Below the pieces are notes generated by a model. That model searched no databases. It was not told the DNA's origin and worked only from the letters and a program-made list of their open reading frames with translations. A DNA stretch of 11,878 nucleotides from an uncultured Nitrososphaerota archaeon. Lineage in GTDB: Archaea; Korarchaeota; Korarchaeia; Korarchaeales; Korarchaeaceae. The DNA lies in the NCBI GenBank assembly GCA_964618805.1, contig CAZUBM010000033.1, positions 1-11,878 on the forward strand, in the 5' to 3' direction. Of this stretch, positions 1 to 11,707 are shown piece by piece. Within the stretch, counting starts at the first letter, position 1; each line of letters starts with the position of its first letter. The translations under genes were made by a program, and so were the position numbers.

Positions 1-673
1 AACATAACGGGAGTCCCTGATACCGGAAAAGTCTTATGGCAGAACAATTTGCTGTAAAACAAGCTTCTCTTGGATATGCAACCTGCTTCATAACGGTTGA
101 AAGTCCCTCATCTTTTGTGGCAAGGGACTTAATGCAAAGATCACTGGCTATGGGCATCGATTGGGAATCGATAAAGCAGAAAATAGTGATCATAGACGCT
201 TCCAGTCACAAAGAGTTGAGGGAAGATATTCCATCTTTACTGAACACTTTAGCATACGCCATAAAGGAGTATGAGGAAAAGAGCGTTACAATAGACTCTA
301 TTACAGGCCTCTTTGAGGCAAAAGAAGTCTTAGCTAGGTCAATAGTGAGAGAAATCTTCAATTTCATGAAGAAAAGGGGTCAAACTGCTGTTCTGATATC
401 CCAAAAGAGAAGCGGGCATAGGGAAGAGACTGCGGAGGCAGCTGGAGGATATGCCGTCAGTCACATAGTGGATGGGACCATAGTGCTATGTAAGATCCTT
501 GTGAAAAGCAAGTGGGAGGAAACCTTTACAAGAAACCGATAGGAACAGTGATCAGGACAATAAGAATAGATGGTTGCAGGATGGTTGGACATGATACGTC
601 CACCCACCTGCTATACATTACAGAAAAAGGTCTTGTGAAGATAGGCCCAAAGTTGGAGGAGCTAAGGGGGTGA
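1..673 (+). pseudogene. KaiC-like RecA-superfamily ATPase (resembles the AF_0795/TIGR03878 family), 5'-truncated by the window edge, with two frameshifts (real pseudogene or homopolymer sequencing errors)
   Basis: Frame 1 from base 1 reads NITGVPDTGK (Walker A). Adding one A to the A-run at 27-30 joins it to SLMAEQF of ORF 36..542, which carries Walker B 'VTIDS' and 'AEAAGGYAVSHIVDG'. Adding one A at 520-522 continues as NLYKKPIGTVIRTIRIDGCRMVGHDTSTHLLYITEKGLVKIGPKLEELRG to TGA at 671-673, a typical KaiC C-terminus. Confidence 0.9.
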
Positions 674-677
674 TCGC

Positions 678-1298
678 GTGGGAATCATGGTAAGCCCGGC
701 GAAGAGGGACGTTGATAAAGAAGTACTGAGAATCTTCATGAAGAGCATCGAACTGCTAGGAGGTCCCAGGAAGCTCATCGAGTACAGGAATCTCACCTGG
801 CTTCCAAGCCTGATGGAGGCTTGTTATGCCATAGCTCTGAAGAACAGGTTTAAGACAGAAGAGGAAATCGCAAGGGAACTCGGAATAACGAAGCAAACAG
901 TCAGGAGGATACTTGAGTCGGATCCATCGGTGGTTATGAAGAAACTGACAGGTGAATATATTGGAAGGTTTGACGAGCATGTGGCCGGTGGAATAGCAAA
1001 ACTCGCATGGAGGGAGATAAAAAGAGGAAGAGAGGATGTTGAGTTGATGATAGATGCATCAAGACAGGTCCTAGAGGGGCTTGGTGGTCCAGTATGGGCT
1101 ATCCTCACTTTGATTAGGATAAAGGGCCTTGATTTCCCGATAGAAGAACCAAAGGTCCTTCAGGAGAGGCTAAAGGGGATAAAGGCCTTTGGTGTCGATC
1201 TAGAGGAAGCAGCAAAGGCCATAAGTTACCCTATAAGAAATCCAGCTGAGCTTCTTAACAAGCTCTCGAAGGAGATAAAGAGGCATGTAAGGGAGTGA
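678..1298 (+). CDS. KaiC-associated regulatory protein (TIGR03879-like domain with HTH, plus a small C-terminal helical domain resembling DUF2795/MTH865)
   Basis: 206-aa ORF 4 nt after the KaiC stop, with SD GGGGGTGA overlapping that stop. Motifs LTWLPSLMEA, HTH 'TEEEIARELGITKQTVRRIL', HVAGGIAKLA, and C-terminal 'IKGLDFPI...YPIRNPAELL'. Start is GTG 678 or ATG 687. Confidence 0.85.
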   Translation: MGIMVSPAKRDVDKEVLRIFMKSIELLGGPRKLIEYRNLTWLPSLMEACYAIALKNRFKTEEEIARELGITKQTVRRILESDPSVVMKKLTGEYIGRFDEHVAGGIAKLAWREIKRGREDVELMIDASRQVLEGLGGPVWAILTLIRIKGLDFPIEEPKVLQERLKGIKAFGVDLEEAAKAISYPIRNPAELLNKLSKEIKRHVRE

Positions 1299-1315: not shown

Positions 1316-2602
1316 TCATCCCTCGACTATCTTAGCTATTTCATTATAATCTTGCTCTGTTATCTTCTCAGTATTTAGTTTCATGTAAAAGTAATCAACC
1401 CCTCTCTGCATTCTAGCTGGCATTTTCAATATCTGCCACATCTTTTCCTTTATCAAAACCGACTTCTTTAGCATTTCTCTCTTAAGCTTGGACTCCACCT
1501 CAAAAACTCTCCTGCGATAATACCCTAATATAACTCCGTCTATGAATGCCTCTGTCAACTCAGCCTTTGGCGTTTCTAGGCCCATCTCACCAAGGCTTGT
1601 CAGTGCTCCATAAGATGATGAGAGAAGTAGCTCATAAAGCTCGAACATTGGGAGTTCCTCTCTTGCAAACCTCGACCTAGCTATAGCCTCAGCGTGAGGT
1701 AAGGGATTCATTACATGGCATAGGCAGAAGACCTCCATTCTCTTTATGTCCTTATCCTTAGTTTTACCAGCCATGTGATAATCTGTCATCCAAGTGCCTC
1801 CCTCTCCAACTAAGTGATTTGCCACATGAGAATTAGTCATGAAGCCTGGTCCTCGCTGAATAGTTCCGTGCATTATGTCGTTATCGTGGTGCAGCCTCAG
1901 GTTGTATCCACACGAGGATCCTAACCACCTAAGGTAATCCTTACAATCTTCCTCTCCCAAGATCTTCTCAATTCCCGGAAGACTAAATGCATAGAGAATT
2001 TCATCCACCCTTATGTCTGTTGGTTCCAGGCAGAACACACAAGCAGCTTCAGTTTTTCTTGAGCCTTTGAGAAACTTGTTCATTAGATCCTCAAAACTCG
2101 TCCTGTTTAGATAGGAGAAGAGATCTCGTCTATTTTTCACTTCTATAACAAAGACGTTCTTGTAAATCCCTAAACCAATGGGTTCTGTTGCATGAAGATC
2201 GAGTTCTTTTGCCTTATTCATCCATTTTATCTCATTATCGGCCTCTTCGGGTGTCGAGAATCCCCATATAAGCTTTCCCGATCCTATACTTGCGTTAGTT
2301 AGGAAGTAGGTAAAGAGCTTCCTATCCCTTTGGATCGGACGGGACTTGCCAAAGGGAATGCCGATTGCTTTAGCCTTAAACCACATCCGATTTAATGGAA
2401 ATGTGATGGACCTGTTCCCGCTTATGTAAGCTAACAGGGAATTAATCCTTCTATCAAGCGGATTGCAAAGCACTGGTAATGTGTCTTTGTTGAAAGGATA
2501 TTTCGATGGATCAAGGAGCTTTGTCTCTCCTTCTATAAGGAAATACTCTGTCTTAGATCCCCTTAGTTTTTGGATAAGTCCTTCTATTGCAAGGTCCTTC
2601 AT
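1316..2602 (-). CDS. Hypothetical protein with a protein-kinase-like fold; divergent SelO/YdiU-like pseudokinase (candidate nucleotidyltransferase/AMPylase)
   Basis: 428-aa ORF, ATG start with GAGGT SD. Ordered motifs SGNRS(61-65), KAKAIG (K78), E124, PTDIRV (R198), HHDNDIMHGT (H245-G246-T247), NSHVAN (N262) and MTDY (D274) match the kinase/SelO motif order. The coding status is confident; the function is inferred. Confidence 0.65.
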   Translation of the reverse strand: MKDLAIEGLIQKLRGSKTEYFLIEGETKLLDPSKYPFNKDTLPVLCNPLDRRINSLLAYISGNRSITFPLNRMWFKAKAIGIPFGKSRPIQRDRKLFTYFLTNASIGSGKLIWGFSTPEEADNEIKWMNKAKELDLHATEPIGLGIYKNVFVIEVKNRRDLFSYLNRTSFEDLMNKFLKGSRKTEAACVFCLEPTDIRVDEILYAFSLPGIEKILGEEDCKDYLRWLGSSCGYNLRLHHDNDIMHGTIQRGPGFMTNSHVANHLVGEGGTWMTDYHMAGKTKDKDIKRMEVFCLCHVMNPLPHAEAIARSRFAREELPMFELYELLLSSSYGALTSLGEMGLETPKAELTEAFIDGVILGYYRRRVFEVESKLKREMLKKSVLIKEKMWQILKMPARMQRGVDYFYMKLNTEKITEQDYNEIAKIVEG

Positions 2603-2652
2603 AGGGATACCTCGTGGACAACATTAAGACCCATTTTACGTCTAAGTTAGCT

Positions 2653-3141
2653 CTAGGTCTTTTTAACCGATATCGGAATCTCGGTTGTCTCCTTGGCAGT
2701 CTTAAAGACCATGCATGTTAGGGTTTTCTCGATACCCTGCACTTTCCTAAGCTTGTTCACTACGAATTCTCCTACCTCATGGACATCACGCGCTTTAACC
2801 TTTATCAGAAGGTCCCAATCACCTGAAATTATGTGAACTTCCTGAACTTCATGAAACAGAGCTATTTTCTTTGCTATTTCTACCTGCGAAAGTGGTTTTT
2901 CTACCCCCGGAACTCTATATGCTACTGATGCTAGCACAAATGCCGTTGTCCCAATCCCTAACTTTTCGGCATTAAGTATCGCCCTATATCCTAATATTAT
3001 ATTAGATTGCTCTAATCTCCTTATTTTAGCATAAACTGTGCTTATAGGACTTCCAATCTTCTTTGCAATCTCTTTTGCTGCTATACGGCAGTTTTCCTGA
3101 AGCATTTTGAGCATCTTAAGGTCCTTAGAATCTAGCTTCAT
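2653..3141 (-). CDS. Lrp/AsnC family transcriptional regulator (162 aa)
   Basis: From ATG 3141: MKLDSKDLKMLKMLQENCR, HTH 'AKEIAKKIGSPISTVYAKIRRLEQSNIILGY', and RAM domain 'VQEVHIISGDWDLLIKV'. The ORF track's extension to 3288 is AT-rich promoter DNA. Confidence 0.95.
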   Translation of the reverse strand: MKLDSKDLKMLKMLQENCRIAAKEIAKKIGSPISTVYAKIRRLEQSNIILGYRAILNAEKLGIGTTAFVLASVAYRVPGVEKPLSQVEIAKKIALFHEVQEVHIISGDWDLLIKVKARDVHEVGEFVVNKLRKVQGIEKTLTCMVFKTAKETTEIPISVKKT

Positions 3142-3220
3142 ACTAGAAATATTACAATGAATGCATGCATATAATTTTTGAATTCTAGAAAAATTAACTA
3201 ATTTATGTAAATTTACAATC
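3142..3220. promoter_or_regulatory. AT-rich promoter/operator region of the Lrp gene with several palindromes
   Basis: On the minus strand, CAAAAATTATAT (BRE/TATA-like, about 3169-3180) lies about 30 nt upstream of ATG 3141, suggesting a leaderless transcript. Perfect palindromes: TGTAAATTTACA 3206-3217, TTCTAGAA 3183-3190, ATGCATGCAT 3161-3170. Inverted repeat TAATTTTT-N9-AAAAATTA at 3172-3196. Confidence 0.6.
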
Positions 3221-3384
3221 AAGGATCTAACTGGAAGATCAGATATGAAAATATCCAAGCGAGACAGAATTGAGTAAGAGAAAGTCACTAATGTCCCCTT
3301 AAATGCCTTGAAAGGAATTCATTGCCCAAGGTTGAAGCATCAAAAGCTGGGCTGAGCATTTTACAAAGACTCTACTTTCCCCTA

Positions 3385-3421: not shown

Positions 3422-4666
3422 TTGGTTACGATAGAGGAACTCCTAGCAAAGCCTTTGAAACCGGGAGAGATCGTAGAAATAGTAGGAAAGGTATCTGAAC
3501 TGCTTCCAGTGTTCACTCTTGGAACTAAGAGATATGAGAGGATGGTTGTTTCAGATGATACTGGTAAAATCATCGTATCCTTTCCGTCTTCACCTAAGTA
3601 CTTCCTCCCAGGGGATGCAGTCAAGCTGAGGGGGAGAATGAGACAATGTCCGTACATGCCCATGGAGAAATGCATCGAAACGAACGCAGAGGACATTGAG
3701 ATACTTGAGCCCAAATGGATAAGACCACAGGATAGAAAAGAGCTTGATGAGCTGGGGGCTTTTACTTTGTTCGCCTTCCTAGCAGTAACAACTCTAGATG
3801 AGAAGAAGATGGAACCCATCCTTAAGACCAGGCTTGAACCCATGAGGATATATGAGGAAGCAAGGAAGAGGATTGAGTTAGGCAAGGATTTGAGTGATCT
3901 TATCGAGCTTCTAGAGGCTATGACGCTCTATAGTGTGTTTTTCAGATCGTTAAGTGCAGCAGAGGTGACGCAGAACTCCCTTATCATGATAAAAGGACTT
4001 AAAATAGGAGAAAAGTCAATTGCAAGAATTAAACTAATGGAGAAGTTTCTAAGGGCATTGGTCGATGTTGAGGGCTTTAGACCCTACATATCAGGACCAA
4101 AAGCGGGTCTTATAGAGACATATCCCTTAGGGAAGGAAGAAGAGTTAGAGAAGTACGGAGAACTAAGTAAGCCAGCAGTTGAAGTAGTTAAAAGCCTTAA
4201 AGGGGAAGGAGATGTTAGACTCATGATAGTTCAATTAAAGGGCTTCCTGGAAGGAATAGAAAAGGTTAGAAAGATCGTCGAAATAGCTGCAGGTGCTGGA
4301 GGTGCTTCTCTATTGACTTCAACCATAGATACAACCCTAGAAAACTTCCAAGAGGTAATGGAGGGGTTAGAGAGAATATCGAATAGGAAGGAGAAAACTC
4401 TTCTTTACATAGAAGGGCTTGAGATCCTAGCTCCTAGCAACCTTTTCATTTCAACCTTTGTTAAGGATCCAGATATTGCCTTAAAAGTTAGGAAGAAGAG
4501 TCTTAACCTGCTATTCAAAATCCTTAAGAACCCTTCCATCCTTATAGTTGCTGTAACGCCTTCCATAGCTCTAGTAGCCAAGGAGGCAGTTGAAAAAGCG
4601 GATAAAATAGTAGGAAAAGCAAAGAAGATTAAGAAGGGTGAGGAGTTCATTCCATATACAGTATAG
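3422..4666 (+). CDS. Hypothetical protein: N-terminal OB-fold, helical middle region, C-terminal degenerate (probably inactive) AAA+-like domain
   Basis: 414-aa ORF with TTG start. OB signature 'GEIVEIVGKV...VVSDDTGKIIV...LPGDAVKLRGRM'. C-terminal 'TLLYIEGLEILAP...NLLFKIL...ILIVAVTPS...KADKIV' follows the AAA Walker B/sensor-1/SRH pattern but lacks the catalytic residues. Confidence 0.7.
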   Translation: MVTIEELLAKPLKPGEIVEIVGKVSELLPVFTLGTKRYERMVVSDDTGKIIVSFPSSPKYFLPGDAVKLRGRMRQCPYMPMEKCIETNAEDIEILEPKWIRPQDRKELDELGAFTLFAFLAVTTLDEKKMEPILKTRLEPMRIYEEARKRIELGKDLSDLIELLEAMTLYSVFFRSLSAAEVTQNSLIMIKGLKIGEKSIARIKLMEKFLRALVDVEGFRPYISGPKAGLIETYPLGKEEELEKYGELSKPAVEVVKSLKGEGDVRLMIVQLKGFLEGIEKVRKIVEIAAGAGGASLLTSTIDTTLENFQEVMEGLERISNRKEKTLLYIEGLEILAPSNLFISTFVKDPDIALKVRKKSLNLLFKILKNPSILIVAVTPSIALVAKEAVEKADKIVGKAKKIKKGEEFIPYTV

Positions 4667-4685: not shown

Positions 4686-6589
<1,904 letters not shown>

Positions 6590-6703: not shown

Positions 6704-7990
6704 ATGAGCTATACAGATTTTGTCGATAAGAATTACAAACCCAGTAAGGACGAATTAGTTGCCCTCTTTTACGTTGAACCTGTTGAAGGGATATCACTTG
6801 AGGAAGCTGCTGGAAGAGTGGCTTCGGAGAGTTCTAATGGTACATGGACAGAAGTTGTAACGATGAGCGACAGGATTAGGAAATTAAGTGCAAAAGCGTA
6901 CGAGTTTAACGGTTTTTGGGTCAAGATAGCTTATCCTCTGGACCTATTTGAGCTTGGGAGCATGCCCCAAGTCTGGAGTTCCATAGCTGGAAACGTGTTT
7001 GGTATGAAAGCTCTCAAGAACTTAAGGCTTGAGGACGTTTACTGGCCCCCTGAAATGGTTAAATCCTTTCCAGGTCCTGGAAAAGGGATTAAGGGGATAA
7101 GAGAGACTTTAAAGGTCGAGAAAAGGCCGATACTGGCTACCGTCCCTAAGCCTAAGGTAGGAATGACGACAGAAGAACATGTAAGAGTTGCCTACGAGAT
7201 TTGGGTTGGCGGAGTGGACTTATTAAAGGATGATGAGAACCTGACTAGCCAGAACTTTAACAAATTCGAGGAAAGGGTTAGAGAATCGCTGAAAATGAGA
7301 GATAAAGCAGAAAAGGAGACAGGAGAGAGAAAATCATACTTAGTCAACGTGACTGCTCCTTTCTATGATATGAAGGAAAGGGCTGAAATAGTTGCGGATC
7401 TTGGAGGGGAGTTCATAATGATAGACATTCTAACCGCTGGATGGTCTGCACTACAGGCTATGAGAGAAGTCGCCAAGGATTTAGGTCTAGCGATACATGC
7501 TCACAGGGCATTTCATGCAGCTTTCACAAAGAACAGGAAGCATGGGGTGTCGATGAAGGTGGTTGCTGAGTCGGCAAGGCTCGTTGGGGTTGACACAATA
7601 CATGCAGGAACGGTTGTAGGTAAGCTTGTTTCACCCCTTGAAGAAGTTACTGCACTTGCTGACGTTCTAAGGAAGGAAAAAGTTGAGGAAGATTGGGAAA
7701 GGAAGATTCTTCCAAAGGATTGGTTGGGATTAAAGCCTGTTCTCCCTGTTAGCTCTGGTGGACTGCATCCAGGCCTTGTTCCAGATATCTTAAAGATACT
7801 TGGGACAGAAATAATGATACAGGCTGGAGGCGGAGTCCTCGGACATCCAAAAGGACCAAGAGAGGGAGCAGCCGCAATGAGACAAGCGCTGTATGCAGCA
7901 ATGGAGGGCATCCCTTTGGACGAATACGCCAGGGATCACAAGGAATTGAGAGCTGCACTCGAACACTGGGGTTATGTTAAGCCAGTGTAA
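6704..7990 (+). CDS. rbcL: Form III ribulose-1,5-bisphosphate carboxylase (archaeal RuBisCO large subunit)
   Basis: All catalytic motifs are present: ASESSNGTWT, AGNVFG, PKPKVG, GVDLLKDDE (carbamylated Lys), HAHRAFH, HAGTVVGKL (loop-6 Lys), SSGGLHPG and QAGGGVLGHP. Length 428 aa, with no small-subunit gene nearby. Confidence 0.96.
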   Translation: MSYTDFVDKNYKPSKDELVALFYVEPVEGISLEEAAGRVASESSNGTWTEVVTMSDRIRKLSAKAYEFNGFWVKIAYPLDLFELGSMPQVWSSIAGNVFGMKALKNLRLEDVYWPPEMVKSFPGPGKGIKGIRETLKVEKRPILATVPKPKVGMTTEEHVRVAYEIWVGGVDLLKDDENLTSQNFNKFEERVRESLKMRDKAEKETGERKSYLVNVTAPFYDMKERAEIVADLGGEFIMIDILTAGWSALQAMREVAKDLGLAIHAHRAFHAAFTKNRKHGVSMKVVAESARLVGVDTIHAGTVVGKLVSPLEEVTALADVLRKEKVEEDWERKILPKDWLGLKPVLPVSSGGLHPGLVPDILKILGTEIMIQAGGGVLGHPKGPREGAAAMRQALYAAMEGIPLDEYARDHKELRAALEHWGYVKPV

Positions 7991-10972: not shown

Positions 10973-11707
10973 TCAATCCATGTACCTTCCACCATTTATG
11001 TTGATAACTTCCCCAATTATATGGTCGTTTTCGGCTAGGAATATGATTGTATGAGCAATCTCTTCAGGTTTAGTTATTCTACCTTGTGGCGAAAGCTCTG
11101 CTGCCTTAATCTTAAACTCAGGAGTCAGAAAGTCGGTATCAACAGGTCCTGGTGCAACTGCATTGACTGTTATACCATAGGGAGCAAGCTCTTTGGCAAG
11201 TGCTCTTGTGAAACCTATTATTCCAGCTTTAGATGCAGCGTAGGCTACACCAACCATCCCTCCACTCTTACCAGCTATTGATGCCACACCAATTATCCTA
11301 CCAAGCCTTCTCTCAATCATTCCTGGTACAACAAGCCTTGTGACATTGAAAACTCCCTTTAAGTTGAAGGATAGCATCCTATTCCACTCCTCCTCTGTTA
11401 TCTCAGTTATCTTAAAGTGCTATGGAAAAACTCCAGCGTTATTCACAAGTATATCTATCCTCCCAAGATCCTTGATTACTTGCCTTACCATTTCTTCGCA
11501 GTCTTGAAAGTTAGAGACATCAGCTTTAGCAGCTATTGCCCTCCTTCCAATATCCCCTATCTCTTCCACGACCTCTTTAGCTTTGTTAACAGAGTGAAGG
11601 TAGTTCATGGCCACATCACAGCCCTTCTTTGCAAAGGCTATGGTTGTGGCATCTCCTACACCTCTGCTTCCTCCGGTTACTAGAACTTTCAACCCTTCCA
11701 ACTCCAT
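10973..11707 (-). pseudogene. FabG-like short-chain dehydrogenase/reductase interrupted by one in-frame TAG at 11420-11422
   Basis: ORFs 11420..11707 and 10973..11377 share a frame (offset 330 nt). Reading through gives NNAGVFP*HFKITEITEEEWNRMLSFNLKG, 244 codons in total, with TGGSRGVG, NNAG, YAASK and NAVAPG. GGAGG SD at 11715-11719. Confidence 0.9.

Follow-up and report, generated by a model that had tools for sequence, protein, structure and literature searches.

The 11,878-nucleotide stretch analyzed here (the window) was contig CAZUBM010000033.1 of GenBank assembly GCA_964618805.1, from an uncultured archaeon that was labeled Nitrososphaerota and placed in the Korarchaeaceae in GTDB. One gene in the window, an open reading frame (ORF) at positions 1316-2602 of the minus strand, encoded a protein of 428 amino acids (aa); the ORF list and the translation confirmed this frame and its ATG start. 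The results presented here indicated that the protein is most aptly assigned to a new family within the kinase-like superfamily, one that resembles SelO and has a remodelled catalytic loop. SelO (YdiU) is a pseudokinase that binds ATP in a "flipped" orientation, and the group that it transfers is AMP or UMP, not phosphate. By analogy, transfer of a nucleoside monophosphate (NMP) from a flipped nucleotide was the best reading of the new family, and we considered the chances of this reading to be about even. A preliminary description of the window, which was made from the sequence alone, had already called the protein a remote member of the SelO clan. That identity held at the level of the fold; as a claim of SelO family membership by sequence it did not hold, and the sequence evidence for it had been overstated. 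Judged from the predicted structure, the resemblance to SelO exceeded chance at that level only.

The AlphaFold2 model of the protein, which was built with an alignment of 51 family sequences, had a mean predicted local distance difference test score (pLDDT) of 90.1 and a predicted template modelling score (pTM) of 0.89. In the model, the protein had the two lobes of a kinase, and Lys, Glu, Asn, and Asp residues were present in the cleft; residues 316 to 343 were the only disordered part. A kinase-like fold, which the preliminary description had proposed as a check on its own claim, was nearly certain. When the whole model was compared with the PDB using Foldseek, the first seven rows were YdiU/SelO entries (E values of 7.5e-5 to 6.7e-4), and Bud32, PRPK, and IRAK4 followed at about 7-8e-4. 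NIS siderophore synthetases and SidJ were also among the structural neighbors. The SelO/YdiU family (Pfam PF02696; protein adenylyltransferase/UMPylase) includes PDB entries 6EAC, 6K20, and 6LNA. All of the SelO/YdiU alignments stopped at model residues 364-365, and the residues beyond 365 were outside every alignment range.

Because the nucleotide site of SelO is said to come from insertions that are peculiar to its lobes, residues 1 to 197 were folded alone (pLDDT 94.2) and the structural neighbors were searched again. Six SelO/YdiU entries scored 8.5-8.9 Z units, with 126-132 residues aligned over model positions 3-197, and a seventh scored 5.8. The next family was a RIO-type kinase at 3.6, and SidJ scored 3.2 or less. 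For the N-lobe alone, the margin of SelO/YdiU was 3-5 Z units. Thus, it appeared that the N-terminal helix and the enlarged N-lobe were specifically SelO-like. A Foldseek search with the N-lobe alone gave no match at E ≤ 0.001, and the list was topped by SidJ at a nonsignificant level (E values of 0.07-0.3). The best structural neighbors of the protein were SelO/YdiU and not canonical kinases that transfer the gamma-phosphate, and a specific structural kinship with SelO was likely.

The preliminary description had lined up a series of short strings with the motifs of SelO. All of the strings were present in the protein: SGNRSI at residues 61-66, FKAKAIG at 75-81, WGFSTPEEADNE at 113-124, AKELDLHATEPIG at 131-143, AACVFCLEPTDIRV at 186-199, DIMHGT at 242-247, IQRGPGFMT at 248-256, NSHVAN at 257-262, and MTDY at 272-275. 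The residue numbers given for R64, K78, E124, R198, H259, N262, and D274 were also correct. Conservation was counted in the 51-sequence family alignment, in which identity to the query was 32-75%. R64, K78, R198, N262, and D274, which the preliminary description had singled out for this check, were found in 51/51 sequences, and E124 was found in 50/50 with one gap. The other invariant residues were K76, G81, I82, G143, D196, E201, P209, W226, G228, L235, H239, H245, G246, N257, E290, L294, P300, L301, G360, and Y361. Outcomes that had been named as contrary to the preliminary description, namely a model without a kinase-like fold, best structural hits to canonical kinases, or poor conservation of the listed residues, were not observed. 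Its interpretation was right at the level of the fold and the conserved residues; the chemistry that it proposed is a prediction.

The arrangement of these residues suggested how a nucleotide might be held. We infer that K78, which was located in model strand 73-78, is the phosphate-binding Lys, and E124, which was located in model helix 118-133, would presumably be its partner in the usual Lys-Glu arrangement. In canonical kinases, a small hydrophobic residue that contacts adenine is located two positions before the beta3 Lys. The Lys at this position in the new family (K76) would thus sit where canonical kinases have the Ala that contacts adenine, and its invariance would argue against canonical adenine binding. 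K76 and K78, which are on the same face of the strand, may together with R64 and the hinge residue R198 form a basic pocket in the region that holds adenine in canonical kinases, and such a pocket would fit binding with the phosphates pointing inward (i.e., flipped binding).

The catalytic loop was placed using alignments of the family profile to Bud32 and RIO profiles. In both cases, HGT was opposite HGD, N262 was opposite the metal-binding loop Asn, and D274 was opposite the DFG Asp, although the Bud32 alignment had a probability of only 52%. The preliminary description had noted that the canonical catalytic Asp was a Thr in this protein, and the same was true of the family: position 247 was Thr in 47 members and Ser in 4. 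It had also noted an insertion of about 10 residues in the loop, which matched a 10-residue gap opposite Q249-S258 in the Bud32 alignment. The model showed a beta-hairpin in segment 247-256 (strands 247-250 and 253-256). At the end of the hairpin, N257 was invariant, T256 was Thr in 43 members and Ser in 8, and S258 was Ser in 46 and Ala in 5. The idea that H259 substituted for the missing base was doubtful, as this position was His in 44 members and Tyr in 7, whereas N257 did not vary.

Several features were common to SelO and the new family. Both had the loop Asn and the DFG Asp, both had lost the HRD Asp, and the Lys/Glu pair of SelO was presumably kept in the new family. In addition, both had an invariant Arg at the known or putative position of the glycine-rich loop (GDGR in SelO and SGxR in the new family), and the model predicted a SelO-type N-terminal extension and an enlarged N-lobe. 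The flipped-nucleotide site of SelO is described as being formed by insertions in the N- and C-lobes, with K113/E136, R176, R183, N253, and D262 as the site residues and with R176 and R183 (Pseudomonas syringae numbering) holding the buried gamma-phosphate, in the review PMC8097203. The beta3 Lys/alphaC Glu pair of SelO (P. syringae K113/E136) would correspond to the conserved K78 and E124. The N-lobe alignments ended at model residue 197, opposite residue 176 of YdiU and residue 182 of the P. syringae protein. Thus, hinge residue R198 would be opposite YdiU R177 and P. syringae R183, by an extrapolation of one residue. YdiU R177 was invariant in a 12-sequence SelO alignment.

A search of protein language model features in the ESM Atlas provided independent support for the SelO-like reading. 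Unnamed clusters came first (scores of 0.96-0.97), and the first named cluster was "MchC protein", in which 35% of the members carried PF02696 (score of 0.94, with 181 of 256 features shared). When the search was limited to named clusters, nine matches were in the SelO set, and clusters of the Kdo/APH type scored only 0.80-0.81. PMC3281104 describes MchC as a SelO subfamily that is distantly related, varies strongly in the HGD/HGV motif, and is required for linking a siderophore to a microcin; the MchC proteins it describes are bacterial and, within microcin clusters, have an HlyC-like acyltransferase as their partner. The new family resembled MchC/MceJ in being nearest to that named cluster by language-model features, in having a similar length (about 400 aa), and in departing from the HGD/HGV motif. 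In contrast to MchC, no HlyC/MchD-like partner or microcin cluster was seen beside the 428-aa gene or its homologues in the loci examined.

A number of results weighed against the SelO-like reading, and many of them came from comparisons of profiles. For these comparisons, a SelO profile was built from 12 sequences: one came from Escherichia coli, two came from other enterobacteria, and the other nine were diverse genes of bacteria and haloarchaea that were found in plasmid or chromid records using tblastn. A homologue search with E. coli SelO had yielded only enterobacterial sequences (at least 79% identity), and the diverse genes were used instead; a Riemerella locus (L007) was left out, as its frame stops early. 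The Bud32 and RIO profiles each contained 12 loci from the window's phylum. In the SelO alignment, the motif order was GDGRA, LKGAG, GDGRAVLRSxLRE, MHALGIPTTRAL, RVAxSHLR, HGVMNTDN, and TIDYGP. The order that the preliminary description had given was therefore correct; its match to the new family was no better than chance by sequence. The family profile aligned with the SelO profile at a probability of 0.15% and a score of 16.8, and 12 block-shuffled SelO profiles scored 15.2-21.5, with 6 of the 12 reaching at least 16.8. The global score (3.7) was also inside the shuffle null (-0.1 to 8.1), and hhalign found nothing when the family was compared with the single E. coli SelO sequence. The Pfam SelO model PF02696 matched 0/51 family members at E ≤ 0.1 and did not match the 428-aa protein at E ≤ 1. 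This model found no match in the window's own genome, this gene included, and no canonical SelO in 43 genomes of the window's phylum; four control genomes were positive.

The sole detectable profile link was to Bud32, with a probability of 52% and an E value of 1.4e-4 over 60 columns; the global score was 26.5, and the shuffle null was 0.7-8.6. For RIO, the probability was 13%. In the control comparisons, Bud32 and RIO aligned at 97%, SelO and Bud32 at 52%, and SelO and RIO at 0.1%. Because SelO and Bud32 also aligned at 52%, the Bud32 link showed superfamily membership only, and by these profile scores the family could be recognized as belonging to the kinase-like superfamily, but remotely so, its distance from Bud32 being about that of SelO. 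By sequence, the line-up with SelO was indistinguishable from chance, and it was borne out by structure instead.

The remaining contrary points came from the model and from individual residues. The Foldseek TM-scores to SelO were low (0.31-0.38), and the whole-model Z values of SelO (14.0) and PRPK/Bud32 (12.9) were nearly tied, at about 1 Z unit apart. The second Arg that holds the gamma-phosphate in SelO (R170 in E. coli and R176 in P. syringae) had no conserved counterpart, the family consensus in this region being AACxFxxxPTDxR. We infer that R64 and K76 might compensate for it. The catalytic loop, which reads HGVMNTDN in SelO, was interrupted by the 10-residue hairpin in the new family. 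As a result, 17 residues separated H245 from N262, compared to 7 between H240 and N247 in SelO, and there was no contiguous HG[VNS]xNxDN motif. The residue before N262 was Ala in 40 members, Gly in 10, and Cys in 1, whereas SelO has Asp at this position (NTDN). Finally, E201 could be a canonical ribose-binding residue like E127 of PKA.

Other differences from SelO were also observed. The new family had additional inserted segments, which were located between beta3 and alphaC and following beta4/5, its protein was shorter (428 aa versus about 480 aa), and no profile similarity to SelO was detectable. The C-terminal CxxC/Sec tail was found in SelO only: the SelO sequences ended in CSS, CGT, or CNT, with C476 invariant, and the 428-aa protein ended in AKIVEG without a Cys motif. 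Because the protein failed the SelO family model and was without several of the SelO hallmarks, it should not be classified within the SelO family.

With SelO as the guide, the following mechanism can be proposed for the favored reading, i.e., NMP transfer from a flipped nucleotide. The protein would be a soluble enzyme of an unnamed archaeal family, with a protein-kinase-like fold and with an N-lobe and N-terminal extension built as in SelO/YdiU. It would bind Mg/Mn-nucleoside triphosphate with both the beta-phosphate and the gamma-phosphate buried between the lobes, where they would be held by K78 (braced by E124), K76, R64, and hinge residue R198, and the metal would be held by N262 and D274. 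The alpha-phosphate would be left exposed to an acceptor, to which NMP would be transferred with release of pyrophosphate. The canonical catalytic Asp would be absent from this site (Thr/Ser), and the inserted hairpin, ending in the invariant N257, would reshape the acceptor site. By analogy with SelO, a first guess for the acceptor would be a Ser, Thr, or Tyr side chain of a protein; a protein acceptor was a possible but doubtful part of the reading.

Alternatively, the protein could be a phosphotransferase or ATPase that belongs with the atypical enzymes of the Bud32/RIO/Kdo type; it would bind ATP in the canonical orientation and hydrolyze or transfer the gamma-phosphate, with another residue, such as T247, N257, or H259, replacing the Asp. 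The Lys-Glu-Asn-Asp set is equally required by a kinase, the Bud32 profile link stood above its null with RIO behind it, and the whole-model Z values of PRPK/Bud32 (12.2-12.9) came with the lowest root-mean-square deviations (2.9-3.7) and were within about 1 unit of SelO. There were also weak Pfam matches to APH in 2/51 members (best E value of 0.013) and to RIO1 in 1/51 (E value of 0.082). However, Bud32 and RIO retain the catalytic Asp (HGD), in place of which 51/51 members had Thr or Ser, and the SelO profile reached the same probability to Bud32 as the new family did. Moreover, the Bud32 (TIGR03724) and RIO1 (PF01163) models missed this gene at E ≤ 0.001 and found other genes of the same genome (contig 10: 55289-55882; contig 26: 18318-18827). 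We considered a phosphotransferase of this type unlikely.

Adenylation of a carboxylate was another alternative. NIS siderophore synthetases (IucA/IucC, AsbB, and AcsD) and SidJ have kinase-related folds and attack the alpha-phosphate of ATP. A carboxylate-adenylating ligase on this fold, similar to these enzymes or to MchC/MceJ, would transfer AMP to the carboxylate of an amino acid or peptide and then join it to a nucleophile. The language-model proximity to the MchC cluster and the position of SidJ at the head of the nonsignificant N-lobe list were in line with this idea, as were an Lrp/AsnC regulator that precedes the gene in the window and the amino acid and peptide enzymes encoded nearby in distant lineages. 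However, the genes for those enzymes ran convergently or divergently, being on the opposite strand, and may only reflect lineage synteny, the MchC-type partner was not seen, and neither a fused ligase or carrier domain nor any longer form was found among proteins of 806-2300 aa, which is weak evidence. On balance, such a ligase was distinctly unlikely. The absence of the canonical catalytic Asp would also be expected of a noncatalytic pseudokinase that serves as a nucleotide- or partner-binding sensor or scaffold. In contrast, K78, E124, N262, and D274, as well as R64, K76, D196, R198, E201, and N257, were invariant down to 32% identity. Since the phosphate and metal set and the charged residues of the cleft were all kept, the pattern was that of an active site, and a noncatalytic role was improbable.

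Kinase-fold enzymes are known to do more than phosphorylate: SelO carries out AMPylation/UMPylation and has recently been reported to hydrolyze NAD to NMP products, SidJ carries out glutamylation, and NiRAN is a further example. Such enzymes have repeatedly opened new biology. In a broader and speculative form of the SelO-like reading, which we thought would probably prove wrong in at least some part, the protein would found a new branch within the SelO superfamily, and this branch would occur only in Bathyarchaeia, Methanomethylicia, Culexarchaeia, and hydrothermal archaea related to them. With the hairpin that carries N257 and with K76 in the adenine pocket, the acceptor site of this branch would differ from those of all known kinase-fold enzymes, and its nucleotide-transfer chemistry would be undescribed for the fold in archaea. 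This chemistry could be protein NMPylation, or it could be adenylation of an amino acid or peptide carboxylate that is linked to the peptidase, aminotransferase, and amidohydrolase genes of distant lineages and under Lrp/AsnC control in this genus. If active, the family would extend SelO-type chemistry to uncultured archaeal lineages, and a natural variant with a remodelled loop could show which residues are truly needed for flipped-nucleotide catalysis. In addition, about 100 clusters of "hypothetical" proteins would gain a name and a function that can be tested. The protein, being small, soluble, of the thermophile type, and modelled with confidence, is suited to expression and assay.

A word-indexed search identified 102 homologue clusters at E ≤ 0.001 (31-100% identity), which consisted of proteins from archaeal metagenome-assembled genomes (MAGs). 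As the preliminary description had anticipated, the clusters were all unnamed or "hypothetical", except for one with the JGI label "serine/threonine protein kinase". Exhaustive phmmer searching of 1.84 billion representatives yielded 28 matches at E ≤ 0.001, and all of them were full-length relatives or apparent fragments; thus, when judged by single sequences, the family stood alone. At E ≤ 1, the 428-aa protein matched no Pfam or NCBIfam family beyond noise, and no PADLOC defense model matched it. Searches of the sequences of solved structures with phmmer and with the family profile also found nothing meaningful (best E values of 0.36-0.37). A description of the family was not found in the literature at the title and abstract level, which is not proof that it is unpublished.

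The species-representative genomes contained 23 loci, which were labeled as Bathyarchaeia/Bathyarchaeota, Methanomethylicia/Methanomethylicota, Culexmicrobium/Culexarchaeum, Thermoproteota, or Nitrososphaerota MAGs. In the window's phylum, the family was found in 5/43 genomes, all of them from one genus (g1), and all members of that genus were positive. Thus, the family occurred in Bathyarchaeia, Methanomethylicia, Culexarchaeia, and related MAGs, whereas SELO among archaea was reported in 2012 only from Euryarchaeota, in the relevant part of PMC3281104.

A few homologues were unusual. The sole family match with a bacterial label (L064) was on a 1857-bp contig binned as Desulfobacterales; it was located at the end of this contig and covered the first 110 residues only, at 44% identity. 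Probably, the contig is archaeal and was binned wrongly, and the match is not a homologue from a bacterium. In one genus relative (G040 contig 42, L040/L041), the homologue was split into frames of 268 aa and 191 aa that jointly covered the whole profile. The same two-frame split was observed at L049, and a Bathyarchaeia homologue (L057) was in two frames of 118 aa and 300 aa. These split homologues are possible pseudogenes or sequencing errors. In a sister genus (g4), many genomes contained a 366- to 400-aa frame that weakly matched Bud32 (E values of 1e-6 to 1e-8, positions of about 40-134; for example, G014 contig 1: 17643-17975) and did not match the family profile. These frames appeared to be another uncharacterized kinase-like protein of the phylum.

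The features of the protein and the genes around it are listed in Table 1. Four other genomes of the genus had the Lrp gene upstream and the TIGR03879 regulator gene downstream of the homologue (63-76% identity), and three of the four, namely those whose contigs extended that far, also had the KaiC-like gene. At one locus (L038), the Lrp and homologue frames overlapped by 4 nucleotides. None of these three neighbors was found at any of the 18 more distant loci. Within this genus only, the gene was probably in an operon behind the Lrp/AsnC regulator.

Table 1. Coordinates in the window of the 428-aa protein, its parts, and neighboring genes
Feature	Position	Strand	Evidence and remarks
ORF, 428 codons and a stop; belongs to an unnamed protein-kinase-like family of archaea	1316..2602	-	No Pfam/NCBIfam match; AlphaFold2 model
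GAGGT, Shine-Dalgarno-like, 6 nucleotides 5' of ATG	2609..2613	-	Direct sequence reading
Residues 1-197, N-terminal helix and enlarged beta-rich N-lobe, specifically SelO/YdiU-like	2012..2602	-	
S61-G-N-R64-S65, loop at putative glycine-rich-loop position, invariant Arg	2408..2422	-	S 50/51, G 49/51, R 51/51, S 50/51
K76-A-K78-A-I-G81-I82-P83, strand beta3, two invariant Lys	2354..2377	-	K76, K78, G81, I82 each 51/51; strand 73-78 in model
E120-E124 in helix alphaC (118-133)	2231..2245	-	E124 50/50; E120 is E in 47, D in 3
P194-T-D196-I-R198-V-D200-E201, hinge motif	2000..2023	-	D196, R198, E201 51/51; D200 49/51
Catalytic loop, H245-G246-T247 ... N262	1817..1870	-	hhalign to Bud32 and RIO; H245, G246, N262 51/51
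Q249-S258, family-specific 10-residue beta-hairpin insertion in catalytic loop	1829..1858	-	10-residue gap versus Bud32 and RIO
T273-D274-Y275, DFG-equivalent metal-binding Asp	1778..1786	-	Opposite Bud32/RIO DFG Asp; D274 51/51; Y275 is Y in 38, F in 13
Residues 316-343, variable low-confidence linker	1574..1657	-	pLDDT < 50 at 316-331 and 333-343; poorly aligned in the family alignment
Residues 348-428, C-terminal helical region, invariant G360 and Y361	1319..1561	-	Helices 348-362, 371-391, 402-411, 416-427
Lrp/AsnC-family regulator, directly upstream of ORF, 50-nucleotide gap	2653..3288	-	Pfam AsnC_trans_reg 5.8e-16, HTH_24 5.7e-12
KaiC-like ATPase gene	36-542	+	Likely truncated by contig end
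TIGR03879 "near_KaiC_dom" helix-turn-helix protein, convergent on ORF 3' end	678-1298	+	E 5.5e-32
414-aa protein, unassigned	3422-4666	+	No Pfam, NCBIfam, or PADLOC family; sub-threshold OB-fold hints only
DUF3786 protein	4686-5303	+	Adjoins 414-aa protein
Adenylosuccinate synthetase	5300-6589	-	Library scan of window proteins
RuBisCO large-subunit homologue	6704-7990	+	Library scan of window proteins

The preliminary description had suggested the KaiC protein and RuBisCO as substrates, and neither suggestion had comparative support. The KaiC-like, TIGR03879, and Lrp genes flanked the homologue only within the genus (0/18 distant loci), and RuBisCO was a neighbor in close relatives only; thus, KaiC as a substrate or partner and RuBisCO as a substrate were both set aside. 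In the distant lineages, different genes were found beside the homologue. A class III aminotransferase (Aminotran_3) gene and an Amidohydro_3 gene were located immediately downstream on the opposite strand at 7 of the 19 loci examined, and a Peptidase_S58 gene was located upstream at 6 loci. In Bathyarchaeia, a thiamine pyrophosphate (TPP) enzyme gene was located directly downstream on the opposite strand at four loci, and an M20 peptidase gene was located directly upstream on the opposite strand at three. These opposite-strand neighbors are a hint of amino acid or peptide metabolism, and they may only reflect lineage synteny.

Several observations were made on the neighboring genes themselves. 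The KaiC-like frame is about 287 aa in relatives and was likely cut by the contig start; together with the TIGR03879 gene, it formed an ordinary archaeal KaiC-regulator pair that was kept in the genus. The Lrp/AsnC ORF (211 aa, GTG start) was probably over-extended: its Pfam domains started at residue 52, some relatives' frames were about 162-164 aa, and the true start was likely a Met near residue 51. The genes for the 414-aa protein and the DUF3786 protein were both kept beside the Lrp gene across the genus. The divergent adenylosuccinate synthetase and RuBisCO homologue genes formed a pair that was conserved in relatives at 85-91% identity; in archaea, this kind of RuBisCO is usually associated with the salvage of nucleotides (AMP). 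Pfam and NCBIfam scans also identified genes for a major facilitator superfamily transporter and a radical-SAM protein in the window. Finally, a short-chain dehydrogenase gene was apparently split into two minus-strand ORFs (10973-11377 and 11420-11707). The upstream 95-aa ORF matched adh_short positions 3-87 (E value of 2.9e-23), and the downstream 134-aa ORF matched positions 105-189 (E value of 6.5e-30), which points to a frameshift, in-frame stop, or misassembly between the two ORFs.

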